This document shows, piece after piece, positions 3,894 to 62,209 of a stretch of DNA of 64,000 nt. The notes beneath the pieces are model-generated. The model saw nothing but the letters and a program-made list of their open reading frames with translations. It ran no database searches and had not been told where the DNA came from. The stretch is taken from the NCBI GenBank assembly GCA_001782805.1, contig MFPT01000004.1, forward strand, positions 41,294 to 105,293. Direction: 5' to 3'. The position numbers and the translations under genes are program-made. The stretch's first letter is position 1; each line of letters opens with the position of its first letter. The stretch comes from Candidatus Magasanikbacteria bacterium RIFCSPHIGHO2_01_FULL_41_23 (GTDB taxonomy: Bacteria; Patescibacteriota; Patescibacteriia; Magasanikbacterales; UBA922).

Positions 3894-5645
3894 TTATTCC
3901 ACTGCAATCGGATCAACTGTAAATGAAATCAAATCATTGGTTTCAGCATCCGTAGCCTTAACTGAAATTGGTCCAGTATAATTCTTTTGATTGGAATTGG
4001 AATCTGATTTATTAAATATTAAGCCAAACTCCATCGCCAACAAATCCAGACTCGTCGGCATTTCTTTAATTGTCCAGACAACTTCATTTCTTTCTTCGGA
4101 AAAAACGACATTACCTGCGGGAACATTAAGTTTTTGTTCATCCCAAGATACATTACCCAGGAGTGTCGTGCTTACGGTCACATTTTTCAAATCATGAAAA
4201 CTATTGGTGAGCAAAAAGGAAAAATTACTAAGATCCAAATCACTGGAGACACTTGCTTTCAAGCTTAAATCAGATAAAATCTTCACAACTACCGGATTGG
4301 TAGTAGCCAGTACTTCGCCATTACTGCGAATTTCACCCCAAACAGTCACTGTACTCGTACTAAAATTAACCAGACTGGTGTTGTCGCCATCTTTAATGGG
4401 CAATGAAATATTAAATATTGATTTTCCGCCATTGGAAAAATCATTAAGTTGGCTATTGGGTTCATTTCCCCAAAAAATAGTACCACGACGAACGAACTCG
4501 TTTATTTGTTCGCCTTTAACAGCGCCATTGTTATGATCAATTAAATTCTGCCAATCCAAAATACTTTTTTTCTGATAGCTGGGCGCTTCAATGTATAAGA
4601 CCGCGGTCAAATTCGGATATATGGTATCACTTGAATTTTGAAAAGAAATTTGAATCGGGAGTTTTTGACCCGGACGAATAGTAACTTGTTCGGCATTTCC
4701 AAACATTGTGGCCGAAGCACTGATCGTCGACGAGGTTAAGGTAAAATTTGTTTCGGTTTGAGAGTAAACAAATTTTTTATGCAAAACTTTAGTCACAAAA
4801 TTAGGATTGATATTTCCACCGGAAAACAGGCCGTGAATGGTAAAAGTAGTCATAGTCGTTAATTTAGGTAACGTCCAACGAAACAAATCAGGTTCATCCG
4901 GCTTGGGGTTGATTTCCTGAGCGAAAAAACTTTGATCCGGTTGAAGCGCAACAATCACCGGTTCAGTAAACGGATAAATTGGCTGAACCGTAAATGAAAG
5001 TGTGGTTGGAACATTCGCGTTAAAAACTGTTGGCTGATTCCAAATAATAGTGGCGGCCGGAATACTGGCCACTGTTTGAAAATTGGCGACTTTTTCAAAT
5101 ACTGAATTGAAATTACCCGGAGTATATGACAAAACCGCAGTTAGTGTTGATGTGGCAAATTGATCAACCAATAATCGACCACTCAAAATAACCGTGCCGC
5201 CTGATCCGGCGGGAATACTTCCCAAAACAATCGTTGAACGTTCACCCAAAACTGTGGGCGAACTGCTTACAAATACAAAACCCCGCGGATATTGAAAACT
5301 CAAACTGGCATGAGCAATGGGCAAGGCTTCCGCATTTCGATAACGCACCGTGTAGGTAATCGTATCACCCGAAGCTATTATTGAGGGAGCTTCAACACTA
5401 ACTGAAATTTGATCATTATATACTAAATTTGGCGTGGCGTATCGCCATACAACCCAGCCCAAAATTCCCAATCCGCAAAAAACAAAAAAACAAGTCAACA
5501 AACGCCAAAACCAGATGCCGTTTGAGCGATCAAACGTTTTCATGTCCGGCATACTGCCATCGGAATTTTCATAAATCTTGCGCAAATTTTCCTCGATCTT
5601 ACGCGGCTCGGACACGGTTATTTTTTTTGATTTTGAACGAGACAT
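3894..5645 (-). CDS. Large bitopic surface protein (short cytoplasmic N-terminus, one TM helix, ~500-aa Thr/Ser/Asn-rich extracytoplasmic beta-rich region); function unknown
   Basis: 583 aa. TM helix WFWRLLTCFFVFCGLGILGWVVW. No recognisable catalytic motifs. Confidence 0.6.
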   Translation of the reverse strand: MSRSKSKKITVSEPRKIEENLRKIYENSDGSMPDMKTFDRSNGIWFWRLLTCFFVFCGLGILGWVVWRYATPNLVYNDQISVSVEAPSIIASGDTITYTVRYRNAEALPIAHASLSFQYPRGFVFVSSSPTVLGERSTIVLGSIPAGSGGTVILSGRLLVDQFATSTLTAVLSYTPGNFNSVFEKVANFQTVASIPAATIIWNQPTVFNANVPTTLSFTVQPIYPFTEPVIVALQPDQSFFAQEINPKPDEPDLFRWTLPKLTTMTTFTIHGLFSGGNINPNFVTKVLHKKFVYSQTETNFTLTSSTISASATMFGNAEQVTIRPGQKLPIQISFQNSSDTIYPNLTAVLYIEAPSYQKKSILDWQNLIDHNNGAVKGEQINEFVRRGTIFWGNEPNSQLNDFSNGGKSIFNISLPIKDGDNTSLVNFSTSTVTVWGEIRSNGEVLATTNPVVVKILSDLSLKASVSSDLDLSNFSFLLTNSFHDLKNVTVSTTLLGNVSWDEQKLNVPAGNVVFSEERNEVVWTIKEMPTSLDLLAMEFGLIFNKSDSNSNQKNYTGPISVKATDAETNDLISFTVDPIAVE

Positions 5646-5652: not shown

Positions 5653-8019
5653 TTAATAAATGGAATTTTGACTCATGACTACGCCAAACAATTCGTCTGT
5701 AGTTAATGTATCTGCCCAACGCAAACCGTTTGTACCAATTTCCGCATCATCGCGATTCCGCCATATCGGCGACCAGCCGTCCGGATAAATAATTTGTGTG
5801 GAAAAATTACTGTTGGTTCCGGATTGTTTTTGTACCAAAAGACTGTATCGTGATGGTGGCGCGGTTACAAAAAAAGGCAATTTGTAAGTAAACCAAACTT
5901 CAGTATCCTCACCGGCTTTGGTAGTGATCCAATTACCAAACACAGTTTTGTTAAATTCATTGGTAATGCGCGTTCCGCTACCGACATGAAAACCACGCTC
6001 AGTTTCATGAGTCTTTAAATCCTCGTCGTCAGTGTACCATTTTTCCGGAACCTTAAATGACTCTTCTTCCGGATAGACAAAACCACTGGCATTTATAATT
6101 TCTGCTCCTTCCGGAACATAAACGCGGACATAACTATTGTTGGGACGACCATAAAGCGCATCACTGGGATTACCGCTATGTTTACGGCGAATAATAACCG
6201 TGTCAACAATGCTTCGATCAGGTTGAACGACAGCTTGATGCTCAATTTCATCGGTAATCCGCGCGTCACTTTTGGCGCCGCCCAAATTAGTATTAACCAC
6301 CATTAGATAATCCTGTGTTGGCAACGTGGCAGTGATTTCTCCAGTCCATCCCAATTCGGAAAATTTCTTTTGCGCGGCGGAATCTACGGTATAAATCTGA
6401 ATTTCTTTTTGCGTCAAGGCCGTGCCAAGTTCACTGACCAATGAAATTATTTGTCCGGAATTTATGACTCCGGCATTATTAATTAATTGATGAAACACAT
6501 CGCCAATTATGGCCTTTGGGCGATTCAAAGCCTTATCCTCGCCAGTCTCAACTTCGGTTTGCAATTTTTCCAGAGCATCAGCCGCGGTTAATTGCAATTG
6601 ATAATGATCATTTTGAAGTGGACCGATTACCTTTAAAATCCGTTCCAGAACCGAAGCATTGACCGCAATCACTCCATCAACGGTTGAGTCACGACTATGT
6701 TTATAAAACCAAGCGATTTTTTGCGCTGAAGCGGGAAAATCCGGAAACCAATTCGCATCCTGAAATTCCCAACGAGGATTGGCGATTTGTAATGGTAATG
6801 GCGGTTTGACAAACGTATCCAGCTGGCCTTGCAAATCATAACTGCCTCCCGGCGGCACTTCCAAATTCATGATCTTGCCACGTTGAACATCAAGTATGGC
6901 CATGCTGCCAATAAAACCACCGGTCGGACGCAATTCATGATGATTTTGAAACACCAATAAATAACGTCGCGGAGAATCGCTTCCGAGCACTGTTTCCAAT
7001 CCGGTTATAACCGAAGTCATTTTTTGCAAATCACCAATCAAACCGGCAAACAGCACTTTAAAATCAGCAAAAGAATTTTGATATTCAACCGGCAATGTTT
7101 GGGATTTGACTTGTGCTAATTCCATGAGCGCGTTTTGATACTGCGGCACAGCGCCACGAATATGAATTTTTAAAATATTCATGCGTTCCAAAAAATCAGC
7201 TTTACTGGAAGATGCCGCTGCCTCACCAATCCCTTTAACCAAATACGTATTACCAAGCGCGACCATATGTCCGGCCGCCAAAATATGCTGACGACTGACA
7301 ACTTTTTCGCCAACAACCGGTAAAATACTGGCGATATAAATAAGAGCACGATGCTCTTTTTCAATCATGGCTTCAACATTGCCAAATGAATTAAGGGCAA
7401 CGTTCAAATCAAGCTGAGCTTGGGGTAAATTAGTGGCCAAAGCCGCGGCTGTGGATGATTGCAAAGACAAAAAAGCATTCACGCTTTCACTAACCAAATA
7501 ATTGCTATCGTGACGTAATTTTTGATAATAAGAAAATGCCGGATATGGCACAAGCAACAGAACAACGAGTGCGAATGCGGTCCAGACAAAAAAACGAAGT
7601 TCAAGACGAGCACAAAATTCGATATAGCTTGCCGCGATTCGTTTTAAAAAAGATTTTTTTGAGACGATGTCACTGGATTCTGAGTCAATATCTTGATTTG
7701 GTTCAGCTTCATTGCGATTGGCTTTTTTGACTAAGCTGGCAAAATCAATGACAACACGTTTGGGTTGTTCTGGAGTAATTTCGGAAAAAATCGGAAAATT
7801 TAACGGTGAATTGATGGATTTTTTTTGACTAAGCGTCACAACATGAGCTGATTGTCGTGGCTTCCTGGAAAAATGTACGGGGACATGTGTCGCGCGAATC
7901 GCCCGAGCTTCGGCTACTGGACAATCTGTTTTTATATGCCCAATTTTTTGGCAAACTGAACATGGGCGATTAATCGCTGTTTTGTTTTTTAACGATGATG
8001 TATTTTTTTTATAATTCAC
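5653..8019 (-). CDS. Large bitopic membrane protein with N-terminal cytoplasmic CCHC zinc knuckle and a large extracytoplasmic domain (DUF4012-like, from memory)
   Basis: 788 aa, GTG start. CSVCQKIGHIKTDC matches C-X2-C-X4-H-X4-C. TM at ~residues 135-160. Downstream motif ELRPTGGFIGS. Confidence 0.6.
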   Translation of the reverse strand: MNYKKNTSSLKNKTAINRPCSVCQKIGHIKTDCPVAEARAIRATHVPVHFSRKPRQSAHVVTLSQKKSINSPLNFPIFSEITPEQPKRVVIDFASLVKKANRNEAEPNQDIDSESSDIVSKKSFLKRIAASYIEFCARLELRFFVWTAFALVVLLLVPYPAFSYYQKLRHDSNYLVSESVNAFLSLQSSTAAALATNLPQAQLDLNVALNSFGNVEAMIEKEHRALIYIASILPVVGEKVVSRQHILAAGHMVALGNTYLVKGIGEAAASSSKADFLERMNILKIHIRGAVPQYQNALMELAQVKSQTLPVEYQNSFADFKVLFAGLIGDLQKMTSVITGLETVLGSDSPRRYLLVFQNHHELRPTGGFIGSMAILDVQRGKIMNLEVPPGGSYDLQGQLDTFVKPPLPLQIANPRWEFQDANWFPDFPASAQKIAWFYKHSRDSTVDGVIAVNASVLERILKVIGPLQNDHYQLQLTAADALEKLQTEVETGEDKALNRPKAIIGDVFHQLINNAGVINSGQIISLVSELGTALTQKEIQIYTVDSAAQKKFSELGWTGEITATLPTQDYLMVVNTNLGGAKSDARITDEIEHQAVVQPDRSIVDTVIIRRKHSGNPSDALYGRPNNSYVRVYVPEGAEIINASGFVYPEEESFKVPEKWYTDDEDLKTHETERGFHVGSGTRITNEFNKTVFGNWITTKAGEDTEVWFTYKLPFFVTAPPSRYSLLVQKQSGTNSNFSTQIIYPDGWSPIWRNRDDAEIGTNGLRWADTLTTDELFGVVMSQNSIY

Positions 8020-8049
8020 AATTAAATTTGAAAAAATACTTTTTTTCTG

Positions 8050-8420
8050 AATCTTAAGAAAAATTCTTCTTTGCTAAATCTTAAGCAAATTTCATTCGTA
8101 CTAACTCTTAAGCAAAATTCGACGATATCCTTTTGTTCAACTGATAGTCTAACGGATTATGCATTCTCAACAAGTTATCATACTCAGCTTTCAGCAAAAG
8201 TATATTCGTCTCCATTTTGCTTATTAGTTTAGTCGAATGTTTCGCTGTTGCAATGCGAGACAGGGTTTAATCTTTGAAGCAAACTGGAGTGAGATCTTTT
8301 TCTCGATGCCCGAGCCTGTTTACCCTAAGCTTGTCGAAGGGTCGAGGGTCGAGAAAAATGGTCTCACGAAGTTTGCTTACGAGTTAGCAAAGAGGAATTT
8401 TTATTTTAATTTCCTTAATG
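8050..8420. repeat. Mosaic MITE-like intergenic repeat, copy B (TIRs CTAACTCTTAAGCAAA / TTTGCTTACGAGTTAG; three tandem half-sites at left end)
   Basis: Near-identical to copy C over ~170 bp and to copy A over the hairpin module. Ends with ggaatttttattttaatttccttaatg, shared with the groESL spacer element. Confidence 0.85.
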
Positions 8421-8447
8421 CAATTTAATAAATTATACCACAAAATT

Positions 8448-9587
8448 CTAGCGCTTGTGAAATATTTTTTCATAAATCGCCCGAGTCTCCGCTGCAAGCT
8501 TGCTCCAAGAATACCGGAGCGATTCTTGACGCGCGGCCAAACGTAATTCGTAACGAATTTCGTCATTAATTAATCCTTGAAAAATAACATCGGCCATTTG
8601 TTTAATTGATTCCGGGTCAAAATACAGCGCCCCCATGCCTAAAATTTCCGGAATAGAACCACGATTTGACGCCACGACCGGTACATTAAAAATCCACGCT
8701 TCCAACGGCGGCAAACCAAAACCTTCGTATAAACTGGGGAAAACAAAAAGCGCAGCATTTTTATACAAAGCCGGCAAATCTTCATCCGGCACAAAACCGG
8801 TAAAAATAATATGGGAAATTTTTTCCTCCTGCACGATTTTTTCAATTTTATTGGAAAAATAATTTTTTTTACTCGCGATGACCAATTGATAATCATTGCC
8901 ATGACGCTCAACCAATAATTTCCAGGCACGCACCAAACCGGCCAAATTTTTATGTGGATAGCTAACGCCAACATACAACGCATAAGACTTGTTGATTCCA
9001 AATTTTTCAATTGTATTTTGCGATGCACTGACATTCGCGGGCGATTCAAAACTGGGAGCTTGATAAATAATGAAAATTTTATTCGTTGTTTGCGGAAAAT
9101 GTTTAATGATTTCTTGTTTGGTGAATTCGCTGACCGCGATAATGTGTTCGGCGCTTTGGACTGCGTGCCGCAAGACAATCCGATACGCCAAATTTTTAAA
9201 CCAATACCCAATCGGTCCGAGCGTGCTGGCCGCGCGCGTGGAATATTGCAAAAGCAATAAGTCATGAATCGTAACAACAAACGGCTCATTATAAAATAAT
9301 GGCACATTCCAGTGCGGAAAATGCATCAATTCAACTTTGGCTTTTTTAATAATGCTTGCCAACAAAATTTGTTCACGCCAGCCATACCACGGAATATCGG
9401 CCAAAACTTTTGTATATTTAAAATGTTCATTTCCTATTTTTACTTTATTGATATTCTCTGAACGCAAAAAAAGAACGTAATCGTTTTCCTGATCAATCAG
9501 GCTCAAGTGTAAAACAAGTTGTTCAATATATCGTCCCAATCCGCCTTGTTCCGGCCCCAACAGGCGACAATCAATTCCAATTTTCAT
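8448..9587 (-). CDS. Glycosyltransferase family 4 (GT-B, group 1)
   Basis: C-terminal EGFGLPPLEA motif and overall GT4 layout. Start taken at MKIGID. Confidence 0.8.
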   Translation of the reverse strand: MKIGIDCRLLGPEQGGLGRYIEQLVLHLSLIDQENDYVLFLRSENINKVKIGNEHFKYTKVLADIPWYGWREQILLASIIKKAKVELMHFPHWNVPLFYNEPFVVTIHDLLLLQYSTRAASTLGPIGYWFKNLAYRIVLRHAVQSAEHIIAVSEFTKQEIIKHFPQTTNKIFIIYQAPSFESPANVSASQNTIEKFGINKSYALYVGVSYPHKNLAGLVRAWKLLVERHGNDYQLVIASKKNYFSNKIEKIVQEEKISHIIFTGFVPDEDLPALYKNAALFVFPSLYEGFGLPPLEAWIFNVPVVASNRGSIPEILGMGALYFDPESIKQMADVIFQGLINDEIRYELRLAARQESLRYSWSKLAAETRAIYEKIFHKR

Positions 9588-9603
9588 ACAGCACAATCAC
9601 TAA

Positions 9604-10687: not shown

Positions 10688-11716
10688 TTATTTTATTTTA
10701 TACATTGTTGCTTTGGCTTTTCCCAAGCGAACAATTTTTCCCAGCGCGATCAATTTATTAAAATCCAAATTACGCGTGGCTTTGGCGCGATCAGTTATCT
10801 GCGAATACAACTTGTCAGTAATGTATTCGTGTTCGGCAATGTAGTTTAAAATATTTTGATGATACGGTTGCAATACATCGGCTGGAGAAAACGCGGATTT
10901 TTTTAACCCCTCGCCCACGCGCAAAAGTTCATCAATAATTCCATCCGTAAAATATTCCAGCCATTCCGTAAAATCCAACTCATTTTTAATATCATAATAA
11001 TTTCCCCGCACGCCTACTGTGGCAAAATATTTAGTGACATTTTGATTATAATAATTTTCAAAACTAAACAAATTAAAAGTATTGAGACCCATCCCCGCCA
11101 ACAAAACTTTAGTAGCCAGTCGAATGGTTCGGCCATTGCCATCAATAAATGGATGGATAACAACAAACTGTTTATGAAAAATCCCGGCTAAAATCAGTGG
11201 ATCAAGAATTTTTTTATTGCGTTCTATAAAATCAAACAACTGTTTCATCAATTCCGAGACATCCGCCTGATCAGGCGGCCAGTACACGGTTATCCGCGCA
11301 CGCGGATCATTGACAAAAACCGGTTCTTGTCGAAGTACGCCGGAACGATGCTCGGACAACAAATTTTGTGTTACAGTTTTTTGTATTTTTAAAACTAAGG
11401 GCAAACCAAAATGAAAAGAACTTTCTTTAACCATTGTATTGAGTTCAATTAAAGCCTCATTATAATTCAAAACTTCTCGCTCACTGTCGCGAATAAATTC
11501 CGGACGGTGTTTCAAAATTTCCCTAACATCGGTCAATGGAAGTGGATTGCCTTCAATACTGGTGGAGGCATGGGCGGAAATTTCCCGTGCCTTTTTTTCC
11601 CAATCCATTAAGACCACTTTGGCCAATGGCTGATAGTTCAATTCTGCCACCAAAACTGAAATCCGTTTGACGTTTTGCAACAATTTAGGAGAAACCGTAT
11701 ATTTTGGCTTAAACAT
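10688..11716 (-). CDS. Fic/DOC family AMPylase-type protein with intrinsic N-terminal inhibitory motif
   Basis: Fic motif HPFIDGNGRTIR. N-terminal TSIEGN matches the (S/T)xxxE(G/N) auto-inhibition helix. Confidence 0.85.
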   Translation of the reverse strand: MFKPKYTVSPKLLQNVKRISVLVAELNYQPLAKVVLMDWEKKAREISAHASTSIEGNPLPLTDVREILKHRPEFIRDSEREVLNYNEALIELNTMVKESSFHFGLPLVLKIQKTVTQNLLSEHRSGVLRQEPVFVNDPRARITVYWPPDQADVSELMKQLFDFIERNKKILDPLILAGIFHKQFVVIHPFIDGNGRTIRLATKVLLAGMGLNTFNLFSFENYYNQNVTKYFATVGVRGNYYDIKNELDFTEWLEYFTDGIIDELLRVGEGLKKSAFSPADVLQPYHQNILNYIAEHEYITDKLYSQITDRAKATRNLDFNKLIALGKIVRLGKAKATMYKIK

Positions 11717-17860: not shown

Positions 17861-17981
17861 AAGTGTGTTGATTAAAATAAAAATGGAATCCCGACAAGTC
17901 GGGATAAACTCCTGTAGCTTTTTTGAGCCCGATATTTATGAGGGTCTCAGAAAAAGATTTGCAGTGAATTTTTATTTTAAT
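17861..17981. repeat. Type-2 MITE-like element (TIR TTAAAATAAAAAT, internal palindrome ATCCCGACAAGTCGGGAT) inserted in groES-groEL spacer
   Basis: About 95% identical to 43738-43860. A partial copy lies at 47031-47075. It widens the normally short groES-groEL gap to ~155 nt. Confidence 0.8.
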
Positions 17982-17994
17982 TTCCTTAATGAGT

Positions 17995-18542: not shown

Positions 18543-19847
18543 TCAATGAGGATAAATCAGGCTATTTTTTGCCTCAACAGAGCGCTGATGTGGATAACAA
18601 GTGGATGAAATAGATATGGCAAACAAGCAGAGTCCAATCCATGTGGTATATAAATAATGATCAAAAAAAGATAAAACGAAAATTGGTCCCAATCCCCAGA
18701 TTACGTTTTCTAATTTAAACCGCATATTTTTGGCTATAAAATATATAAACCACAGCCAAAAAATCATTCCAAAGATCCCCCATTCAACTAATCCCAATAC
18801 AAAAACGTTGTGAACAGGCTGAAGTTGCCATCCATTGAGTGCGGAATTTTGTTTTTGTAAAAAAACCGTAAAATTCCCTGGACCAGCACCAAAAAACCAA
18901 TTATTTTTAAATATATTCCACGCCTCGGCATATCCGATAACCCGTTCGGAAATCGAATTAACTTCATGTATTTCGACCATTGAAAATCTGGTTGTAACAA
19001 TCGGCCACAACAAGCCAAGCAAAACTAAAAAACTAAAGGCGGAAACAAAAACACCCAATGAAAAAAATGAATCCCGACATAATGGCTGGCGAAAAATCCG
19101 CCAATGTGAAAAAATAATCATAAACGCCCATGCCAGCCAAGCCGAACGACTAAATGATACCACCAATCCGACAGTTAAAATAATAAGAATAACAATAAAA
19201 AACCATTTTAATTTTTTTGTTTTAATTTGCCGGAATTTTTCTTCTGATTGCAAAAAAAATAAAATATGACTAATTACAATTACCATAAAACCCCCCAATA
19301 TATTGGGATGCGGAAATGTACCATACGCGCGCAACCAACGACCCGCGCTCGTTACAACTACACTGGCGCCGGCAATCCAACTAGAATGAGTCGTCGTCCC
19401 CAACAATGTTGATCCCCAAGTAGTTTGGCCAAAAAATTGTGCGATTCCCAAAACAGCCGGCACTATACTTCCAACAGCCAACCAAAAAATAATTTGTTGA
19501 TTATTTAAATATTTCTCGCGAATCAACATGCATAGTATCCCCGCTTCAATTATTCGACGAATAGTTTGAAACGCCAGCCAAGAATCGGACGCATGCCAAA
19601 TCATAACAAAAAAATAAATCAGCATGACAATAATTAACCCTGAACAATTAATTTTTTTATTAAACCAATGACGAATTCCCATCAATACTAACAGGATTTC
19701 AGTCAGATAAAAAATAATCGTGGCCTGTTGCCAAATACTCCCGCCGATAAACACCGTACTGGCGATAAACGCAGTTTGGAATGGCAAAAAAAACAAAAAC
19801 AAGCGCAACTCATTGGCAATAATATATTTGGATGTAAAAAATTTCAT
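18543..19847 (-). CDS. O-antigen ligase (WaaL/Wzy_C)-like polytopic membrane protein
   Basis: 434 aa, about 10 TM helices, with the FSRSAWLAWAF motif typical of the O-antigen ligase family. Confidence 0.65.
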   Translation of the reverse strand: MKFFTSKYIIANELRLFLFFLPFQTAFIASTVFIGGSIWQQATIIFYLTEILLVLMGIRHWFNKKINCSGLIIVMLIYFFVMIWHASDSWLAFQTIRRIIEAGILCMLIREKYLNNQQIIFWLAVGSIVPAVLGIAQFFGQTTWGSTLLGTTTHSSWIAGASVVVTSAGRWLRAYGTFPHPNILGGFMVIVISHILFFLQSEEKFRQIKTKKLKWFFIVILIILTVGLVVSFSRSAWLAWAFMIIFSHWRIFRQPLCRDSFFSLGVFVSAFSFLVLLGLLWPIVTTRFSMVEIHEVNSISERVIGYAEAWNIFKNNWFFGAGPGNFTVFLQKQNSALNGWQLQPVHNVFVLGLVEWGIFGMIFWLWFIYFIAKNMRFKLENVIWGLGPIFVLSFFDHYLYTTWIGLCLFAISISSTCYPHQRSVEAKNSLIYPH

Positions 19848-24440: not shown

Positions 24441-24800
24441 TCTAAGTCTTAAGCAAACTTAGTTTATTCTAACTCTTAAGCAAAATTCAACGATATCCTT
24501 TTCTTCAACTGATAGTCTAACGGATTATGCATTCTAAACAAGTCATCATACTCAGCTTTCAGCAAAAGTATATTCGTCTCCATTTTGCTTATTAGTTTAG
24601 TTGAATGTTTGGGTGTTGCATTAGGGTAATTTCAGTAGTAGGTAATTTTGTTTTTCAGTAATGTGTATGAGCTTTCTTACTACTTACTTGGTTAAAGTAG
24701 ATTTAATATATCAATAAGGATAGAAACTAGGGAGAGGAGAAGAATAGCGAGTTTTACTGAAAAGAAAATTACCTACTACTGAAATTCAGTTGATTTAAAT
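24441..24800. repeat. Mosaic MITE-like intergenic repeat, copy C (left TIR plus a 180-bp inverted-repeat module)
   Basis: Left half is nearly identical to copy B. Right half (24610-24790) is nearly identical to copy D 40510-40690. It contains a ~33-bp inverted repeat aatttcagtagtaggtaattttgtttttcagtaa ... ttactgaaaagaaaattacctactactgaaatt. Confidence 0.85.
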
Positions 24801-25810: not shown

Positions 25811-26614
25811 TTATTTTTTTGTTTGATTAATTAAACCGGAAAGAATTAATTCCAAGAGCGCTAAGACCACCACGGTCGCGCCGGTCGGCAAATCAAGATA
25901 AAATGAAATTAACAATCCGGCCACCATGGCGATAATGGAAAATAAAACTGAAATGACCAAAGTAACTTTGAAACTGGATTTGAATTGCATGGCCGCCGTC
26001 ACCGGAATTACCATCAGTGCGCCAATTAATAACACGCCGACAATGCGCATCGCCACGGCAATGGTTACCGCCGCCAACATGATCATAAATAAATTCAAAG
26101 CCGGCACGCGCAAACCTTCAGCTGCGGCCAAATCTTCATTTAGACTGACTAAAAATAATTCTTTGTATAAAAACAAAACTCCAATTAACGCCACAATTCC
26201 CAAACCAACAATTAACCATACATCCCATTGCGTTACCGTAGTAATACTGCCAAACAAATAACTGAATAAATTTTGATTAAAGCGTTGATTCGCGCCCATT
26301 AACAATAACGCAATCGCCAAACTGCCGGACAAAAAAATCGCCAAAACCGATTCACCAAATAAACGCCGACTGCTGCGCAAACGCTCGATTCCCCAGGCCG
26401 CGACGATGGCCACTCCGAGAGCAGAAATAATCGGATTGATGCGCGCGATTAAACCAAGAGCAACGCCAACCAATGAAACATGCGCCAAAGTATCAGCCAA
26501 ATACGAATAGCGCCGCACCACTAAAAATAATCCGATCATTGGCGCAATCACCGCAATGACCAAACCCGCGCCCAAAGCGCGTTGCATAAAATCATAAGCT
26601 AAAAATTCCAGCAT
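25811..26614 (-). CDS. Metal (Zn/Mn) ABC transporter permease, ABC-3 family
   Basis: 267 aa, 8 TM, ZnuB/MntB-like. Confidence 0.8.
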   Translation of the reverse strand: MLEFLAYDFMQRALGAGLVIAVIAPMIGLFLVVRRYSYLADTLAHVSLVGVALGLIARINPIISALGVAIVAAWGIERLRSSRRLFGESVLAIFLSGSLAIALLLMGANQRFNQNLFSYLFGSITTVTQWDVWLIVGLGIVALIGVLFLYKELFLVSLNEDLAAAEGLRVPALNLFMIMLAAVTIAVAMRIVGVLLIGALMVIPVTAAMQFKSSFKVTLVISVLFSIIAMVAGLLISFYLDLPTGATVVVLALLELILSGLINQTKK

Positions 26615-26617
26615 ATT

Positions 26618-27766
26618 TTAGATTTGTTTTGTTGACCGATTATAATATTGAACAGCAATAATGGTGGACAAAGGCACGGCGACCACCAGAGCAATACTGC
26701 CAATAAGCGCTCGCACCACTTCTTCACTGATAAGTTCGGTATTGAGCGTCACCCACCACGGCGTGCTGTAGACAGTAAATAAAAGAAGTAAGGGAAATGA
26801 TGCGCCAACATAAGCTAAAACTAAGGTATTCACAACCGAAGTTATATGTTCCCGTCCAATACGCGCGGCGCGATTATACAATTCACGAGCAGACAATTGC
26901 GGATTGGCGTGTTTTAATTCCGCTACCGCCGCTACTTGCGCAGTGGTTACATCATCCAACACGCCGAGCACACCAATAATAATACCGCCGAGTAATAAAC
27001 CGCGCAAATTAATGGGATGTTCAGTGCCAAATTGCAGATAATACGCTTCTTCACTTCCCATGCCAAAAAGTTGTGTTGCCTCGACGGCAAAATACGCCAA
27101 ACCCATGGCTCCGGCAATAGTAATCATAATACTCACAAAGGCCAAACAAGTTTCCCGATTAAAGCCATGCGCCAAAAATAATGACGATGAAGCGATGAGT
27201 GCCGTGCCGATTATACAAACCACAAATGGATTGCTCCCGCTCGTGACTTGCGGAATAATATAAAAACCAATTATTACCATGGTTAAGGCTAAGCCAACAA
27301 ACGCCATTGCTCCGCGTTTACCGGCAAAAGCAATCGTAATTCCGGCAAATAAAATCAATAACCAACCAATGGCCGGCAAGCGAAATTGTTCGGTAATGTA
27401 ATATTGAGTTATCTCCGGCGTAATATTTTTGACAACGATTACTCCATCTCCGGCAGTCATTTTTTTGGCTCGTGATTCGCCGCGAATTTGATAATCAACC
27501 GTGACGATTTTATTTTTTTCCAAACCACTCACAATCTCAACTTCCAATTTTTGTGTGATCAAAGGTTCGCCAAGTTCAATTGTTTTTTCTTCGCTGATCA
27601 CCCACATCACTTTGCCACGAGCATAACTATCTTCGCTCCTCGGTTCGGCATTATCGGCTTGGACAAATCCGACAATTAAAAAAAGACCAGCCAAAAAAAT
27701 ACCCAACAAAAAACGAAATTTAAATGTGGTAATGTTCAACCACTTTGGTATCATGACCATACACAT
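26618..27766 (-). CDS. YibE/F-family membrane protein
   Basis: GMGSEEAYYLQFG and LDDVTTAQVAAV motifs. Polytopic membrane protein. Confidence 0.7.
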   Translation of the reverse strand: MCMVMIPKWLNITTFKFRFLLGIFLAGLFLIVGFVQADNAEPRSEDSYARGKVMWVISEEKTIELGEPLITQKLEVEIVSGLEKNKIVTVDYQIRGESRAKKMTAGDGVIVVKNITPEITQYYITEQFRLPAIGWLLILFAGITIAFAGKRGAMAFVGLALTMVIIGFYIIPQVTSGSNPFVVCIIGTALIASSSLFLAHGFNRETCLAFVSIMITIAGAMGLAYFAVEATQLFGMGSEEAYYLQFGTEHPINLRGLLLGGIIIGVLGVLDDVTTAQVAAVAELKHANPQLSARELYNRAARIGREHITSVVNTLVLAYVGASFPLLLLFTVYSTPWWVTLNTELISEEVVRALIGSIALVVAVPLSTIIAVQYYNRSTKQI

Positions 27767-28484
27767 CGTGTAAATATTTTTCCTTTTCAAAATTAGGCGC
27801 CGGAACATGACAAACTAAAGTTTTACTGACGCACAAAACATGTCGCACTTGACCAATAACCGCGTCCACATCATGCGATACCATAATAATCGTCATCTTA
27901 TTTTCTTGGTTAAGCTTCCTGAGCAAACGATCAAGTTGATCTTCCGCGGCACTATCTACTCCGACTGATGGCTCATCTAAAATTAATAATTTTGGTTCCC
28001 CAGCCAAGGCGCGAGCAATAAATACACGTTGACGCTGACCGCCCGATAATTGATCCAGCGGTCGATTGGCTAATTCGGAAATTCCCACCAAGTCCATCAT
28101 TTCTTCAGCCTGTTTTTGGTCATCACTATTAAATAAATGAAACAAACCACGTCGCCGAGTTCGTCCGCTCAAAACCACTTCATAAACTGTGGCCGGAAAT
28201 GAAAAATCCACTTGGGCAATATGCTGCGGCACATAACCAATTTCAAAATGGGTTTTGGCTGTGGCCGCGCTATGGCCAAAAATTTCGACTTGGCCGTTTG
28301 TTGGTTCAATCAAACCCAAAATTAATTTAAGCAGAGTTGTTTTGCCGCCACCATTGGGGCCAATGATACCGACAAAATCACCGACCGGAATTTCCGCGGT
28401 TACTGAATCCAAAACCAACGCGTTCGTATACGCAAAACCAACATTGTGCAAAGAGATACAAGTATTGCCGTGAGTTATTGGCAT
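27720..28484 (-). CDS. Metal ABC transporter ATP-binding protein (ZnuC-like)
   Basis: Walker A GPNGGGKTT, signature LSGGQRQR, Walker B LLILDEP. Confidence 0.9.
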   Translation of the reverse strand: MPITHGNTCISLHNVGFAYTNALVLDSVTAEIPVGDFVGIIGPNGGGKTTLLKLILGLIEPTNGQVEIFGHSAATAKTHFEIGYVPQHIAQVDFSFPATVYEVVLSGRTRRRGLFHLFNSDDQKQAEEMMDLVGISELANRPLDQLSGGQRQRVFIARALAGEPKLLILDEPSVGVDSAAEDQLDRLLRKLNQENKMTIIMVSHDVDAVIGQVRHVLCVSKTLVCHVPAPNFEKEKYLHDVYGHDTKVVEHYHI

Positions 28485-29431
28485 AGCATGGCAGTGGTTA
28501 AGGCAGACAAATTATCGCGCATAATAGTTTCATAATTTTTCCCGGCTGACAAATCTTCGCTGGTTAATCCTTCAATGGGATTCAATACATTGGTAACTGC
28601 TCCGGTTTCTTTGGCCAGAGTTTCGGCCAAACGCGGTGAAACCAACGTTTCAAAAAAAATCGTTGTAATGTTTTTTTCTTTTACCAATCTGGTTAATTCC
28701 GCCAGATGCTTGGCCGATGGTTCAGCTTCCGGTGACATGCCGGCAATCGCGTATAGTTTCAGATTATATCGTTCAGCCACATAATTGAACGCGTAATGGG
28801 AAACTATCACATCACGAGTGGCACAGCTGGCCAAACTTTTAGTGTAATCAGTATCCAACGCGGTTAGACGGCCTGACAAGTCACTAAACTGTCCGCGATA
28901 ATAATCTGCTCCGCTTGGATCAACTACAATCAATGTATCACGAATTAATTCGGCAATTTGACGCGCCCGAATTGGATCCAACCAAATATGCGGATCAAAC
29001 TGATTAAAAATTCTTTTGTCTTCTCTCTCATCGTCAACCATTTGTTCAACTGGAGTCGGCATCAGTGAAACGGCATCACTTACTGCTACGACTTTTACAC
29101 CTCCAACGATCAATTCCGGTTGCACTCGATCAGCCCACGCATCAACCCCATTGCCGTTGTAAAAAAATACTCGACTGGAGCGAAGCGTAATTATATCTTG
29201 TGGCGTTGGTTCAAAATCATGCGGTTCAGTTCCATTCGGAGTAATTGACTGTATAGATACGCGATCCCCGCCGACTTGCTCGGCAAAATAGGCCAATGGA
29301 TAAAAACTGGCCGTGACGGAAATTTTGGCCGATTTTGGCACGAAATTATTTACTTTTGAACGGCTGGCGAACACTGCGGCCAGAGCCAAGCCAAGAATTA
29401 TAACAATGATAATCGTGATTTTTTTATACAT
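28475..29431 (-). CDS. Metal ABC transporter substrate-binding protein (ZnuA/TroA-like)
   Basis: Signal/TM N-terminus and cluster-9 SBP fold length. First gene of the SBP-ATPase-YibE/F-permease operon. Confidence 0.75.
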   Translation of the reverse strand: MYKKITIIIVIILGLALAAVFASRSKVNNFVPKSAKISVTASFYPLAYFAEQVGGDRVSIQSITPNGTEPHDFEPTPQDIITLRSSRVFFYNGNGVDAWADRVQPELIVGGVKVVAVSDAVSLMPTPVEQMVDDEREDKRIFNQFDPHIWLDPIRARQIAELIRDTLIVVDPSGADYYRGQFSDLSGRLTALDTDYTKSLASCATRDVIVSHYAFNYVAERYNLKLYAIAGMSPEAEPSAKHLAELTRLVKEKNITTIFFETLVSPRLAETLAKETGAVTNVLNPIEGLTSEDLSAGKNYETIMRDNLSALTTAMLCQ

Positions 29432-35562: not shown

Positions 35563-37509
35563 ATGCTTAAAAAAATCATCATTGGTTTTTGTTTCTTGTT
35601 TGGTATTTTTTTGTTTGAGAATCAAGCGCAGGCAGTTGATTCAACAAATAAAGCATCAAAATGTTGGACAAAAACAGCGTGTGAAAGTGCCAGAGCCGGA
35701 TTTGGCGGTGTTCCGGGCGAAGGTTTGTATACCGGATCTGATGCACAAGAATTGTGTGGAAAAGACCATCTAGTCCCCGGAGGTGGAAAAGAGCCTACTG
35801 GTTTTTGTCTGCCAGCCGGCCAATCAATCACCAAAATTTCCTTTGGTGGAAAACAAACATTTGCCAACTTCGGGGAATTTATCCAATACATTTACCGCTA
35901 TGGTATGTGGTTGGCCGGCATTCTGGCAGTTGCTTTTATTGTTATTTCCGGTTTGCAGTGGGCTGCTTCGGGTGGTAATTCTGATATGATCGGATCAGCC
36001 AAAAATAGAATTACCGGAGCCGTAACCGGACTTATTTTATTAGCACTGTCTTATACTATTCTTAGTACAATCAATCCATATTTGGTCCAATTACGTTTGC
36101 CACAAACCTGGATGATAAACAGAATTGGCATGGCCGCAGCGTTTTGTAGCGATGCAAAAGATGCAAAAATATCTCTTTTTACAAAATCTGATACTTCACA
36201 AATAGAAAAAGAAAAAATAAAAGCAACTAAATTGGCAGAGGTTGAAAGCAAAGGATATAAAGAAACATACCTAAATGCAAAATGTGGTTATGAGTATTTT
36301 GTGGATGGCACGTCCGGACAAACGTGCCAAGGGAATATTTGTGGAGGAGGAATATGTGGATCAGCAATCAAAGATAAAAAATTGACATCTAATAAAGTAT
36401 GCTACGAGGGTGATTTGATAATAAAATTTTCAGCAGACATGGCCAATAACTTTCTTTCCCAAGCTCCTTTTCTCGGTATTGGCTTCGCTCAACTTAAGGA
36501 TAAATGGCTGACTAATAATCTAGTAATATACGGAGTTTGTGAAATGCCAAATAATGGAGTCTGTTCATCTGACCAAACTATTAGCGGTGGTGAAAAAATA
36601 AAAATGAGTCAGAGCACTCTCGAGGGCGAAGTTCTCTCCAACTATTTACGAATATACCATGGGATTAGAGACCTTGGTGCCGGTACCTTTTGTAAAGATA
36701 CTGAATTAAAGAATTTAAAAGGAATAATAATAAAAACCGAACTTGACGAGAACTGGAAATTCACTGATCCTAATTTATACATTGCCATACCCTCGTCAGG
36801 AAATAACGCATACATAGGAGATTTTAAAACTGTTTTTGATAAAGTAAAAGCTGAAGATTCAGCTAAAGTATACGAAAGATTAAAGGTTGGTTTAGAATTA
36901 AATGCCCTCGTAACGTTTAACATGTTCTCCAAAATTTCTGATGAAGACTGGAGTGGACCAAATGATCTAGAATTCGAGGAGTTATGTAAAAATTACACAT
37001 CTAGTGAAGATGGTGCTGAAGTAAAATTAAAACTAAAAAAAGATACTGGTGGCTTCTGCTTCCTAGCTGGCACTGAAATTCTGACACCGGCTGGAAATAA
37101 AAAAATTGAAATGCTGGGAACCGGTGACGAAGTGATCTCTTATAATATTGAGGATGGTAGTTACCATATCGGAAAAATCGCTGGTGTACGCAAACAAAAT
37201 AGTGAAGCATATTATTTAATAAACCATGGCCTTCTTCGGGTCACTGATCAGCATCCTATATACTTAAGAAAGAAATCAAACAAACAAACTGGATGGGCGT
37301 CTAACAATCCTTCGGGGACACATAAATTAACTGGTCTAAACGTCATGCAATTAGAAGTTGGTGATGAAGTCTTTACAGATAACAAAAAATGGGTTAATAT
37401 CACAGATATTGTCCATATTTCAAAGGAAGTCGAGACCTATAATGTACTCAATGTTGAACCCTATAACACATACTTCGCAAACGGTATCCTAGTACACAAC
37501 AAAATATAG
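35563..37509 (+). CDS. Secreted Cys-rich protein: signal peptide + VirB2/TrbC-pilin-like double-TM segment + C-terminal Hint (intein/hedgehog-type) autoprocessing domain
   Basis: Signal peptide [24 protein letters not shown]. Hydrophobic pair [49 protein letters not shown] resembles conjugative pilin. More than 20 Cys in the extracytoplasmic part. C-terminal ~150 aa has Hint blocks [10 protein letters not shown] (A), RVTDQHPIY (B, TxxH), and [23 protein letters not shown] (F/G), ending VHNKI-stop. Confidence 0.75.
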
Positions 37510-40361: not shown

Positions 40362-40723
40362 TCCGTTTCCTAAGTCTTAAGCAAACTTCGTGAGACCATT
40401 TTTCTCGACCCTCGACCCTTCGACAAGCTCAGGGTAAACAGGCTCGGGCATCGAGAAAAAGATCTCACTCCAGTTTACTTATTAGGTATATTGAATGTTT
40501 CGGTGTTGCATTGGTGGGGAATTTCAGTAATAGGTAATTTTCTTTTTCAGTAATGTGTATGAGCTTTCTTACTACTTACTTGGTTAAAGTAGATTTAATA
40601 TATCAATAAGGATAGAAACTAGGGAGAGGAGAAGAATAGCGAGTTTTACTGAAAAGAAAATTACCTATTACTGAAATTACTGTTGAATTGATGTAAGTTG
40701 TAACTTATTTTAATTTCCTAAAT
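40362..40723. repeat. Mosaic MITE-like intergenic repeat, copy D (TIR + inverted hairpin module + 180-bp inverted-repeat module), inside uvrA 3' UTR
   Basis: Hairpin module is the reverse complement of that in copy B. Right half is nearly identical to copy C. A terminator hairpin follows at 40746-40774. Confidence 0.85.
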
Positions 40724-43737: not shown

Positions 43738-43860
43738 GATTAAAATAAAAATGGAACCCCGACAAGTCGGGATAAACTCCTTAAGCTTTTTTGAGCCCGA
43801 TATTTATGAGGGTCTCAGAAAAAGATTTGCAGTGAATTTTTATTTTAATTTCCTTAGATG
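43738..43860. repeat. Type-2 MITE-like element, second full copy (immediately 3' of tRNA-Arg)
   Basis: About 95% identical to 17861-17981. Confidence 0.8.
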
Positions 43861-46283: not shown

Positions 46284-47033
46284 TCACACGGACGTTGTTC
46301 CAATATATTCAATATCTTCCGGAGTCAATCGTCGGATCCCTTCATCGTTAGTTATTTCTTCAACAATATGGGCAACGAGTCCGGGAACGCGGGCAATTAC
46401 AAATATACCATTTCCTATGCGCGCGTCAAAGCCCATATCACAAAGAATTGCCGCAATCGCGCCATCAACATTCAGTGGAAGTTTTTTGGATGAAATTGAA
46501 TTTAATCCGATTTCAATTTTTTGGGCAAACGTCGCATACTGACCATATATCCCAGTTTCTTTGGCAATTTTAAACAATGCTTGCGTACGCGGATCAACTG
46601 CAAAAATTTTGTGACCAAATCCGGACGCATATTCTTTGCGTTCCTTCATATTTTTAAGAAGTGCTACGATATCAGACTCGTCAACATGATCATAAAAAAA
46701 TTTCATCGCCGGTTCAACTACCACACCATGCCGACCACCCAGTCCAAGCAAACCGGCCGCAACCGAAGTGTGCAAATCATTTTTGGCCGAAGCCGAAATT
46801 CGGGCGTTCATCGCCGAACTTGTTGCCGGACCATGATCAATGATCGCGGTAAAAATGGCATTCATCATTTTTGTTTGTTCCGAAGTCGGTAAATGACCTT
46901 TCAAAATCAAAAAAATTGTTTCGACAAAAGTTTTGTTGGCAATTAAATCCGCCAAATTATGTCCACGAATAATTTCCGTGCCGTCGGTTTGAATGTTCGT
47001 GATTGCGGTTTTGAATTTCATATTAATTGTCAA
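46284..47033 (-). CDS. Citrate-synthase-like protein (citryl-CoA lyase-like / ATP-citrate lyase C-terminal-domain-like)
   Basis: 249 aa. Citrate-synthase catalytic motifs SGFGHKIF (GxGHxV His) and VDPRTQAL (DPR Asp). No full-length citrate synthase large domain. Confidence 0.6.
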   Translation of the reverse strand: MTINMKFKTAITNIQTDGTEIIRGHNLADLIANKTFVETIFLILKGHLPTSEQTKMMNAIFTAIIDHGPATSSAMNARISASAKNDLHTSVAAGLLGLGGRHGVVVEPAMKFFYDHVDESDIVALLKNMKERKEYASGFGHKIFAVDPRTQALFKIAKETGIYGQYATFAQKIEIGLNSISSKKLPLNVDGAIAAILCDMGFDARIGNGIFVIARVPGLVAHIVEEITNDEGIRRLTPEDIEYIGTTSV

Positions 47034-47077
47034 AATAAAAATGGAATCCCGACATGTCGGGATTATTTTAATCTAAA

Positions 47078-47968
47078 TTAAGAATGGGGTTTGATTAATA
47101 GAACTAAATCTTCGTATTTCTCCGCAATCATCACCCCAACATCACTCAACGCCTTTTCTTTTTCCACCGCGCCTTTCCCCTTCTCCACAATCGCGCCGGC
47201 ATGACCGATATTCATTCCCTCCGGGAGGATATTCGCGAATTTTCCCCCAATATAGATAGCGAGTGGTTTAGTATATTCGTCATTATTGATTAAGTCAACA
47301 ATCTCAAATTCATAACTGCCGCCGTGTTCGCCAAAAATAACCACGGCTTTTGTCTGATCATCTTTTTCAAATAAACGTAGTAAATCAGCATAAGTTGTAC
47401 CCATCAACAAATCACCGCCCACATGCACGGCTGTGCTTTGGCCCAAGCCAGCCTGGCGCAATTGCCATGAAATTTCATTGGTCATCCCACCGGAACGAGA
47501 AATTACTCCAATTGATCCAGGAGAAAAAATTTCATTAACCAATGGACCACCGACCACGCCAATGCGTCCAACTCCCGGAGAAATAAAACCGAGTGAACTG
47601 GGACCAATAATGGTAATATTTTTTTCTTTGGCCGCGGCCAAACAATAAGCTGTATCTTTAATGGGAATGCGTTCCACGATCGTGTTGATTAAGGGAATGT
47701 CGTTATTAATTGCTTCCAAAATTGCGGCTTTGGCCGCAAATGGTGGAACATAAATTGCGCTGATATTTATTTCAGGAAATTGCGTTTTGGCTTCAGTAAT
47801 GAAATTAAATACCGGTTTACCTTCCACTTCTTGACCAGCCTTATTGGGAGTAACGCCACAGACTACATTGGTGTTATAATCCAACATCGCGCGCGCGGCT
47901 TTGGCGCCTTCTTTGCCCGTAATCCCTTGGACGAGAACGTGAGTTTGAGTAGTGATGAGAATACTCAT
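47078..47968 (-). CDS. Succinyl-CoA-synthetase alpha-like CoA-binding/phosphohistidine subunit
   Basis: CoA-binding Rossmann fold N-terminus and phosphohistidine loop MNIGHAGAIV. Confidence 0.8.
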   Translation of the reverse strand: MSILITTQTHVLVQGITGKEGAKAARAMLDYNTNVVCGVTPNKAGQEVEGKPVFNFITEAKTQFPEINISAIYVPPFAAKAAILEAINNDIPLINTIVERIPIKDTAYCLAAAKEKNITIIGPSSLGFISPGVGRIGVVGGPLVNEIFSPGSIGVISRSGGMTNEISWQLRQAGLGQSTAVHVGGDLLMGTTYADLLRLFEKDDQTKAVVIFGEHGGSYEFEIVDLINNDEYTKPLAIYIGGKFANILPEGMNIGHAGAIVEKGKGAVEKEKALSDVGVMIAEKYEDLVLLIKPHS

Positions 47969-47969
47969 A

Positions 47970-62066: not shown

Positions 62067-62103
62067 TTTTTAAAAAAACCACAGAAATAAAAAAGATCCA
62101 AAT

Positions 62104-62209
<106 letters not shown>

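Follow-up and report, generated by a model that had tools for sequence, protein, structure and literature searches.

RESULTS

A zinc knuckle at the N-terminus of a DUF4012 envelope protein

The window analyzed here is a 64,000-nucleotide (nt) stretch of the genome of Candidatus Magasanikbacteria bacterium RIFCSPHIGHO2_01_FULL_41_23 (assembly GCA_001782805.1, contig MFPT01000004.1, positions 41,294 to 105,293). Magasanikbacteria are an ultra-small, uncultivated bacterial lineage. On the minus strand of the window, an open reading frame (ORF) encodes a 788-amino-acid (aa) protein of the DUF4012 family (PF13196) that combines a CCHC zinc knuckle at its N-terminus with a single transmembrane (TM) helix and a large extracytoplasmic domain. 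The zinc-knuckle module is best known from retroviral nucleocapsids and eukaryotic RNA-binding proteins, and CCHC knuckles are seen as belonging to eukaryotes and retroelements. The gene and its parts are listed below with the evidence for each (AF2, AlphaFold2 model).

5653..8019, minus strand: gene for the DUF4012 protein with N-terminal zinc knuckle (ORF, gene call on a JGI contig, Pfam E = 3.4e-27, homologs)
7921..7962, minus strand: CCHC zinc knuckle, aa 20-33 (CSVCQKIGHIKTDC), with the basic residue R18 ahead (motif, conservation, profiles, AF2)
7606..8019, minus strand: predicted cytoplasmic tail, aa 1-138, net charge +12 (composition, alignment of 103 homologs, pLDDT)
7831..7851, minus strand: tail motif SAHVVTL, aa 57-63, in the family S-P-H-V-V-D/N-L-K (S57 in 103/103, H59 in 92/103)
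7717..7755, minus strand: tail motif R-x-V-V-D-F-A-x-L/M-V-R/K-x-A-N, aa 88-101 (column counts; AF2 helix 93-104, block pLDDT 76)
7531..7599, minus strand: predicted single TM helix, approximately aa 141-163, ending in invariant L-P-F/Y-P-A (hydropathy, invariant P158, AF2 helix 141-156)
6985..7548, minus strand: predicted extracytoplasmic helical stalk or bundle, aa 158-345 (AF2, block pLDDT mostly 75-96)
5656..6984, minus strand: predicted globular ectodomain, aa 346-788, an alpha/beta DUF4012 core plus a C-terminal beta-sandwich, no Cys (pLDDT mostly >90)

The preliminary description of this DNA had reported the same ORF with a GTG start, and an independent gene call on a public JGI contig that encodes the identical protein gives the same start and 788 aa. 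The GTG at 8019 is the sole canonical start that includes the knuckle: no ATG, GTG or TTG occurs from there to codon 61, and an in-frame stop lies upstream at 8076. There is no Shine-Dalgarno (SD) sequence at this start, and an A/T-rich run precedes the GTG. Nearly all other listed genes of the window likewise lack an SD sequence and are preceded by A/T-rich runs; because the genome is essentially without SD sequences, the missing one is uninformative here.

Hydropathy analysis of the 788-aa protein revealed one hydrophobic segment (approximately aa 139-163) and no second one. With the polybasic tail and the confinement of cysteine to that tail, this indicates that the protein is a type II (N-in) bitopic membrane protein, the topology that had been proposed. 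The description of this protein and its 583-aa neighbor as giant overstates their sizes, which are large.

The knuckle is conserved across a clade and under selection

Residues 20-33 (nt 7962-7921) match C-X2-C-X4-H-X4-C exactly, as first reported, and the pattern is a single instance across the six frames of the window. Given genome Cys and His contents of 1.06% and 2.05%, it would be expected by chance 2e-5 times per 788 aa and 4.5e-4 times over all long ORFs.

A word-indexed search returned 1285 DUF4012 homologs, and all 120 listed are annotated PF13196; an exhaustive search of 1.84 billion cluster representatives returned 10,473 relatives as representatives at 50% identity. The nearest homologs come from metagenome-assembled genomes (MAGs) of Candidatus Magasanikbacteria, within the candidate phyla radiation (CPR; Patescibacteria). 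The knuckle lies near the N-terminus in 104 of the 120 close homologs (42-100% identity), and those without it are mostly truncated or mis-started calls, such as P0016 (starting MCPYRRRR) and P0053 (starting MSGHDKRTC). Among the best 145 new 50%-identity representatives, 47 carry the knuckle, all at ≥38% identity to the query, and none does at ≤37% identity. We also surveyed 80 species-level loci; 552 species genomes had a relative. The canonical motif was present in the DUF4012 ORF at 77 of the 80 loci, or 79 counting L008, where masked bases partly hide it, and L011, where a CCHH variant (CSLCRETGHNRQAH) lies upstream of the annotated start. The knuckle is thus peculiar to the Magasanikbacteria clade.

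The four ligands are invariant among 111 unique homolog knuckles, and Gly precedes His in ≥90% of them. In 78 genomic copies, the ligand codons vary synonymously (TGT/TGC 62:16, 42:36 and 54:24 at the three cysteines; CAT/CAC 48:30), and all four Gly codons are in use at the position before His. An in-frame ATG lies ahead of the knuckle in 71 of these copies, at a median of 11 codons before the first Cys. Cys/His spacings are altered in two homologs (P0134 and P0153), and the 945-aa homolog P0141 has two tandem CCHC knuckles, at residues 36-49 (CGLCGRNGHNKRRC) and 78-91 (CSVCGRTGHNKRTC). These patterns indicate that the knuckle is under protein-level selection and is not a chance occurrence.

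The only cysteines of the window protein are at positions 20, 23, 33 and 136. Its 624-aa ectodomain has none, and the ectodomain count is likewise zero in 98 of 108 homologs. Restriction of Cys to the tail fits zinc-thiolate chemistry on the reducing, cytoplasmic side of the membrane. Taken together, the sequence data make it very probable that this is a genuine, translated, cytoplasmic zinc-binding knuckle.

The clade knuckles resemble eukaryotic and retroviral CCHC knuckles

The Pfam zf-CCHC model (PF00098, cutoff 20.8) gave a ligand-dominated score of 17.8 bits in the full-length protein and 24.5 bits for an isolated 26-aa segment. A profile built from the 111 clade knuckles matched solved CCHC knuckles in the PDB (7c42, 1.7e-8; TUT4, 4.5e-8; HIV-2 Gag, 2.3e-6), including those of TUT7, Xrn2 and Air2. 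At E ≤ 0.01, 17 of the 111 individual knuckles matched PF00098 and 49 matched PF16588 (zf-C2H2_10), so that each Pfam knuckle model captured only a minority of the clade; knuckles other than those matching PF00098 match zf-C2H2_10, zf-CCHC_4 or zf-CCHC_2. In the AF2 model of the 788-aa protein (69-sequence alignment, mean pLDDT 85.5, pTM 0.76), residues 21-40 reach pLDDT 75-84 in an otherwise mostly disordered tail.

The residue after the first Cys is Ser in 84 of 103 homologs, and His is followed by Asn/Thr and then Lys/Arg. Arg occupies position -2 in 90/103 and Lys/Arg position -1 in 79/103, and the core reads GH(T/N)KR.

The knuckle heads an older polybasic tail

Residues 1-138 contain 24 Lys+Arg, 12 Asp+Glu and 16 Ser; the median net charge of the tail in knuckle-bearing homologs is +21. 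Tail pLDDT is mostly low except at the knuckle and a helix at residues 93-104. Alignment of 103 homolog tails gave a consensus that opens with a basic N-terminus and R-(K/R)-C-S-(V/L/I)-C-x-x-x-G-H-(N/T)-K-R-x-C-(P). A Lys-rich linker, V-x-V, S-P-H-V-V-(D/N)-L-K and W-x2-V-x-(V/A)-(Y/F)-x-E follow, then R-x-V-V-D-F-A-x-(M/L)-V-R-x-A-N (the predicted helix), a variable linker, a juxtamembrane F-x-x-(K/R)-(R/K)-F, and the TM helix, closing with invariant L-P-F-P-A.

Distant DUF4012 proteins without a knuckle keep a polybasic tail, and about half have an SPHVVDL-type motif. Some distant tails are extremely Lys/Ala/Thr-rich, histone H1-like N-termini (P0206, net +73; P0246, +49; P0190). Because distant members retain the tail and often the SPHVVDL motif, the knuckle is a clade-specific head on an older tail, placed where other lineages have a generic polycation. 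That it is an addition to a more widely conserved tail had been missed in the first reading.

The ectodomain has a DUF4012 core with enzyme-like conservation

The DUF4012 assignment proposed in the first reading is right: residues 348-489 match Pfam DUF4012 at 96.2 bits (cutoff 28; E = 3.4e-27), over profile positions 1-142 of 144, and the motif ELRPTGGFIGS (aa 362-372) lies within the match. In the AF2 model, the stalk consists of helices 158-194, 198-222, 224-232, 234-272, 276-302 and 311-345, and the alpha/beta core opens with a three-stranded meander that bears FQNxxELRPTGGFxGS. Invariant polar residues include E362, R364, D377, R416, D421, D448, K502, D570, K583 and R632; as a set they suggest a site of catalysis or ligand binding more than a scaffold.

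No PDB chain related by sequence to the DUF4012 protein was found, and Foldseek gave only weak matches in the PDB (E 1e-4 to 6e-2). The beta-sandwich matched ribophorin I (of the oligosaccharyltransferase complex), ITIH1 and N-domains of M1 peptidases. Seven LytR-CpsA-Psr (LCP) structures were among the top 50 matches (3pe5, 2xxq, 3tep, 3tel, 4de8, 3nxh and 3qfi; E 1e-3 to 6e-2, target-normalized TM score 0.27-0.47). Membership in the LCP family is not supported: the 788-aa protein has no Pfam LCP (PF03816) match, hhalign probabilities did not exceed 0.3%, and the likeness is a weak one of fold. The best hhalign local alignment, which is not significant, pairs DUF4012 TVDGVIAINASVLERLLxVxGPI with an LCP strand-helix-GG segment. 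DUF4012 may nonetheless have an LCP-like function.

DUF4012 and a conserved stalk protein lie in a glycan-assembly operon

The first reading had paired the DUF4012 gene with a downstream gene for a second bitopic protein of the same topology whose ectodomain is rich in Thr/Ser/Asn; it had missed that the pair belongs to a glycan-assembly operon. The neighboring features are as follows.

3894..5645, minus strand: partner gene, encoding a 583-aa bitopic protein (TIGR01451, PF01345 in homologs, AF2 pLDDT 87.3, Foldseek, synteny)
8448..9596, minus strand: GT4 glycosyltransferase gene directly upstream, in the same operon in relatives (Pfam Glyco_transf_4/Glycos_transf_1 on the same gene in L004)
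8432..8461, minus strand: weak promoter-like site at the end of the GT4 gene, TTCACA-18-TG-n-TATAAT, 11/12 positions (consensus scan)

On the minus strand of the window, the order is PAP2, ManC-type nucleotidyltransferase, YceG, Fic, QueA, GT4 glycosyltransferase, DUF4012 and the partner; genes for RNase III, NusB and L32 lie downstream of the pair and are convergent with it. Neighborhoods at the 80 loci were counted by clustering all ORFs, with the partner also sought by tblastn. The partner lies directly downstream on the same strand at 73 loci by clustering and 75 by tblastn, with contig ends accounting for three of the five tblastn negatives. GT4 paralogs lie upstream on the same strand at 62 of the 80 loci (156 copies), and a Bac_transf/CoA_binding_3 priming phosphoglycosyltransferase lies approximately 5.7 kb upstream, also on the same strand, at 44. 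These counts indicate that DUF4012 and its partner are a real, conserved two-gene unit, as had been proposed, and that the priming phosphoglycosyltransferase, the GT4 genes, DUF4012 and the partner form a conserved operon. Genes for a bactofilin and a DAGK_cat-type lipid kinase recur approximately 8-8.6 kb upstream of DUF4012 at 14-15 of the 80 loci (L012 and others). No sigma factor or regulator is conserved near DUF4012 in the 80 neighborhoods. Promoter-like matches in the 8432..8461 region were not enriched over shuffled sequences.

The cytoplasmic segment of the partner contains a helix (residues 13-25) and a nearly invariant L21-x2-I-Y-E-N-x-D-G-S-M-P-D-M motif. One TM helix (approximately aa 43-70) follows, then an ectodomain of about five immunoglobulin (Ig)-like beta-sandwich domains that is 29% Ser+Thr+Asn and contains no Cys. 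The AF2 model of the partner reaches pLDDT 87.3 and pTM 0.54, in line with a beads-on-a-string arrangement. The first domain is CLIPPER/DUF11-like: it scores 27.3 bits against TIGR01451 (cutoff 24) and 13.7 bits against PF01345 (cutoff 24.6), and many partner homologs carry PF01345. This family, formerly DUF11, has been renamed CLIPPER, a CnaA-like domain of surface fibrils (PMC12617251). Foldseek matched the partner best to the Ig-like domains of PrgB (4.8e-15), integrin-alpha legs and alpha2-macroglobulin MG domains, which together with the model confirms the beta-sandwich fold. Partner homologs are few (44), diverge faster than DUF4012 and lie on the same contigs as DUF4012 homologs.

Two other genes near the operon deserve mention. 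A Wzy_C (O-antigen ligase/polymerase-like) membrane protein is encoded at 18543-19847(-), approximately 10 kb from the DUF4012 operon, and is a possible missing polymerase or ligase of the glycan pathway. A Fic-domain protein gene (10688-11716, minus strand) is inserted between QueA and YceG and is absent from the otherwise syntenic relative L003.

A dispersed repeat upstream of the DUF4012 gene

The 428-bp spacer at 8020-8447, upstream of the DUF4012 gene, is unusually long and is a dispersed intergenic repeat with a core at approximately 8101-8420. At least four other copies with 85-99% identity occur in the 64 kb (943-1197; 24469-24620; 40378-40476, minus strand; 59733-59855, minus strand), along with short pieces at 17966-17991 and 43834-43856. 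The repeat is strongly structured as RNA (minimum free energy -117 versus -78 +/- 6 kcal/mol for shuffled sequences, z = -6.7), with 38-nt inverted arms (8056-8093 and 8368-8405) and three 27-nt tandem repeats right before the GTG. It was absent from the 80 related loci and matched no Rfam family; for these reasons, it looks like a genome-specific element resembling miniature inverted-repeat transposable elements or repetitive extragenic palindromes. A 35-aa ATG ORF inside it (8108-8215, minus strand; METNILLLKAEYDNLLRMHNPLDYQLNKRISSNFA) is probably not a gene.

Other observations in the window

A ZnuABC-type operon for zinc uptake lies at 25811-29431(-) and comprises genes for a ZnuA solute-binding protein, an ABC ATPase, an ABC-3 permease and a YibE/F membrane protein; as judged from this gene content, the organism imports zinc. 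Three adjacent genes at 46284-49166(-) resemble ATP-citrate lyase or citryl-CoA synthetase/lyase, with Citrate_synt C-terminal, CoA_binding/Ligase_CoA, and ATP-grasp_2 plus Citrate_bind domains; they are unexpected for a metabolically reduced CPR genome. A 648-aa protein encoded at 35563-37509(+) has a T4SS_pilin-like N-terminal region and a weak Hint-domain match. At 62103-63504(-), the 5S rRNA was detected but just the 3′ portion of the 23S rRNA (model positions 2046-2912); an intervening sequence or the window edge could account for this. Many Magasanikbacteria-type MAG records (L007, L009, L010, L012 and others) carry the title "uncultured Gammaproteobacteria bacterium", and L076 carries "Candidatus Udaeobacter sp."; evidently such records were mislabeled or mis-binned.

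DISCUSSION

Proposed function of the DUF4012 protein

We give about even chances to the proposal that the DUF4012 protein serves in glycan assembly outside the membrane and that its zinc-knuckle tail binds a polyanion in the cytoplasm, probably nucleic acid. The ectodomain would attach, process or scaffold a lipid-linked glycan that the co-encoded priming phosphoglycosyltransferase and GT4 enzymes build. Attachment or onward transfer is the probable role, with the wall and the Ser/Thr-rich stalk protein as possible acceptors, and the ectodomain would probably work with that co-transcribed Ig-like/CLIPPER protein; the two proteins probably interact physically. Inside the cell, the knuckle, added in this clade ahead of the older SPHVVDLK and RxVVDFAxxVRxAN motifs, would be the first structured element of a polybasic tail of approximately 140 residues and would coordinate zinc. 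With its flanking Arg/Lys residues, it would bind a cytoplasmic polyanion, most probably RNA or single-stranded DNA, and such binding could either tether the envelope-glycan machine to nucleic acid or make the protein a membrane-anchored regulator of expression.

Nucleic acid is the favored ligand because the knuckle is homologous to RNA-binding knuckles and flanked by Arg/Lys, because it stands where Lys-rich, H1-like tails stand elsewhere in the family, and because there is a precedent at capsule loci, where the LCP protein CpsA reportedly binds the DNA of cps promoters (Hanson et al. 2010 and 2012, cited in PMC11739294). The coupling of the tail to RNA or DNA, suggested in the preliminary description, therefore survives as the leading interpretation from homology and charge, weakened by the lack of an aromatic stacking residue in the knuckle. 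We hold a nucleic acid ligand to be somewhat short of an even bet, and any specific downstream role of the knuckle tail to be less likely than that.

Several observations weigh against this proposal. Among the 80 loci, L030 is a true knuckle loss, and the close homologs P0005, P0006, P0040, P0064, P0075 and P0086 lack the knuckle and keep the rest of the tail; such losses argue that the knuckle is dispensable for the core function. The Pfam zf-CCHC score comes mostly from the four ligands and so is not independent of the motif. Because Ser follows the first Cys, and Asn/Thr and then Lys/Arg follow His, the knuckle is without the aromatic/hydrophobic base-stacking platform of retroviral knuckles; that platform defines the nucleocapsid subtype, not the whole zf-CCHC family. 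A single knuckle is usually a weak binder, and several eukaryotic knuckles contact proteins instead (Air2, Xrn2). No flippase or polymerase gene was found within the conserved operon at the 80 loci. At the profile level, the resemblance to LCP is slight: hhalign probabilities were 0.1% against one LCP sequence and 0.2-0.3% against a 20-sequence profile, the latter made from the pNZ4000 plasmid LCP protein and 20 homologs and, being narrow (46-97% identity), of limited sensitivity.

A bolder version is that Magasanikbacteria recruited a knuckle of the eukaryotic/retroviral type as the nucleic-acid-binding head of a membrane-anchored envelope protein, which would define a new class of bacterial transmembrane coupler. 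RNA or single-stranded DNA would then be linked to an extracytoplasmic machine that assembles glycan or surface fibers; candidate nucleic acids would be transcripts of the operon itself, the nucleoid, or DNA entering or leaving the cell. As a one-component regulator, the protein could bind RNA and signal the state of the envelope; as a tether, it could hold nucleic acid in place at the envelope of these ultra-small episymbionts. We regard this version as unlikely.

Alternative roles for the knuckle

The best-surviving alternative, which we rate as doubtful, is that the knuckle is a zinc-stabilized protein-protein module that recruits a cytoplasmic partner to the membrane complex and binds no nucleic acid. 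Candidate partners would be the GT4 or priming transferases, the cytoplasmic motif of the partner protein, or a cytoskeletal protein. The missing aromatic residue fits such docking, as do the two further conserved linear motifs of the tail, which are typical of docking sites, and the partner's own nearly invariant L21-x2-IYEN-x-DGSMPDM. Cytoplasmic glycosyltransferases are co-encoded, a bactofilin gene recurs nearby at 14 of the 80 loci, and protein-binding knuckles such as that of Air2 provide precedent. However, the strongly basic flanks, and the Lys-rich tails elsewhere in the family, fit a polyanion better than a specific protein surface, and the best sequence matches are to RNA-binding knuckles.

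It is distinctly less likely that the protein is a membrane-tethered sensor-regulator, by analogy with ToxR/CadC, zinc-binding anti-sigma (ZAS) factors or the reported DNA-binding tail of CpsA. The ectodomain would sense the status of the envelope or its glycan, and the tail would control transcription or translation; release by proteolysis, or a zinc or redox cue, might be the trigger. The topology matches, with a cytoplasmic binding module at the N-terminus followed by one TM helix and an extracytoplasmic domain; the long helical stalk is reminiscent of signaling bundles, and the reported binding of cps promoter DNA by CpsA at streptococcal capsule loci and the weak fold matches to LCP structures point the same way. 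Yet the protein has no helix-turn-helix, winged-helix or ZAS (H-x3-C-x2-C) motif or Pfam match, the many invariant polar ectodomain residues suggest an enzyme more than a sensor, the leader ahead of the gene is not conserved and consists of a repeat insertion particular to this genome, and no sigma factor or regulator is conserved in the neighborhood. Assignment as a ZAS factor (zf-HC2) is not supported, given the missing motif and Pfam match and the absence of a conserved sigma factor nearby.

We consider it highly improbable that the polybasic tail and knuckle simply bind the inner leaflet, through its anionic lipids or through lipid-linked pyrophosphate carriers, and thereby orient or cluster the protein. 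High positive charge on the membrane side and polybasic tails throughout the family, with or without a knuckle, would suit this role, but the tail is largely disordered and the knuckle sits at its far end, approximately 110 residues away from the TM helix, and electrostatics need no strictly conserved metal site. Finally, there is next to no likelihood that the motif arose by chance or precedes the true start and so falls outside the protein, possibilities already raised in the preliminary description: the GTG start, lack of an SD sequence and full-length Pfam score under the cutoff are outweighed by ligands that stay invariant while their codons vary freely, by the retained Cys/His in 104 of 120 close homologs and at 79 of 80 loci, by the ATG ahead of the knuckle in 71 of 78 copies, by the general absence of SD sequences from the genome and by a chance expectation of just 2e-5, so that this reading is refuted by the conservation data.

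Significance

DUF4012 is a very large family, among those that set CPR and Gram-positive envelopes apart, and a strictly conserved, clade-wide tail knuckle offers a concrete biochemical handle on what the cell interior contributes to an envelope machine. A stable, vertically inherited bacterial CCHC knuckle fused to a membrane protein also has implications for where the module came from and how wide its functional range is. The conserved operon nominates a candidate system for a surface glycan or glycoprotein fiber in organisms that depend on cell-cell attachment. In the literature we found no paper on a zinc knuckle or finger in Patescibacteria, in Magasanikbacteria or on DUF4012. The novelty is a clade-wide domain fusion within a known, publicly annotated family and not a new kind of system.

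Comparison with known systems

The knuckle shares with the zf-CCHC family (PF00098; retroviral nucleocapsid, TUT4/TUT7, Lin28, Air2, Xrn2) its exact spacing, the Gly before His, basic flanks, a profile-level match to solved knuckles (E to 1.7e-8) and a confidently modeled small structured unit. It differs in its bacterial (CPR) host and in occurring only once, at the very N-terminus of an envelope protein that is anchored in the membrane. Compared with nucleocapsid knuckles, it has Ser in place of an aromatic residue after the first Cys and polar/basic residues after His.

The zinc fingers of bunyavirus and hantavirus Gn have a dual beta-beta-alpha fold and stand in a C-terminal tail; Gn is viral and has no sequence relationship to the window protein. 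The likeness is an analogy of concept only, that of a CCHC on the cytoplasmic tail of an envelope protein, where it links the envelope to the ribonucleoprotein (reviews PMC3400131 and PMC4661284). ToxR/CadC/TcpP and ZAS factors likewise have a cytoplasmic N-terminal binding module (zinc dependent in ZAS), one TM helix and an external domain; unlike them, the window protein has no winged-helix or ZAS motif, no associated sigma factor and an enzyme-like ectodomain.

LCP proteins also have a short cytoplasmic N-terminal tail, one TM helix and an extracytoplasmic alpha/beta domain and occur at capsule/exopolysaccharide (EPS) loci, and the tail of CpsA is reported to bind DNA (as cited in PMC11739294). 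In contrast, DUF4012 adds a helical stalk of approximately 190 aa and a C-terminal beta-sandwich. With CLIPPER surface domains and the stalks of fibrillar adhesins, the partner shares its TIGR01451 match and a string of beta-sandwiches like that of the PrgB Ig-like region; it is anchored by an N-terminal TM helix and not by a sortase motif or outer-membrane anchor, and it has only one recognizable CLIPPER unit, under the Pfam cutoff in the window's own partner protein.

A further comparison is with the DUF4012 family itself. We know of no member with a demonstrated function. The family is enriched in CPR and Gram-positive bacteria as an envelope family (fam000574 of Meheust et al. 2019; PMC6744442), and in the EPS locus of Bifidobacterium longum 105-A a member (BL105A_0406) lies between a priming glycosyltransferase and wzz (PMC5412050), so that it adjoins a priming enzyme in a polysaccharide/envelope cluster, as the window protein does. 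The window protein is a clear member, with an N-terminal TM helix, a large extracytoplasmic domain and glycosyltransferase neighbors; what sets it apart from members at ≤37% identity is the knuckle, which is confined to the Magasanikbacteria clade.

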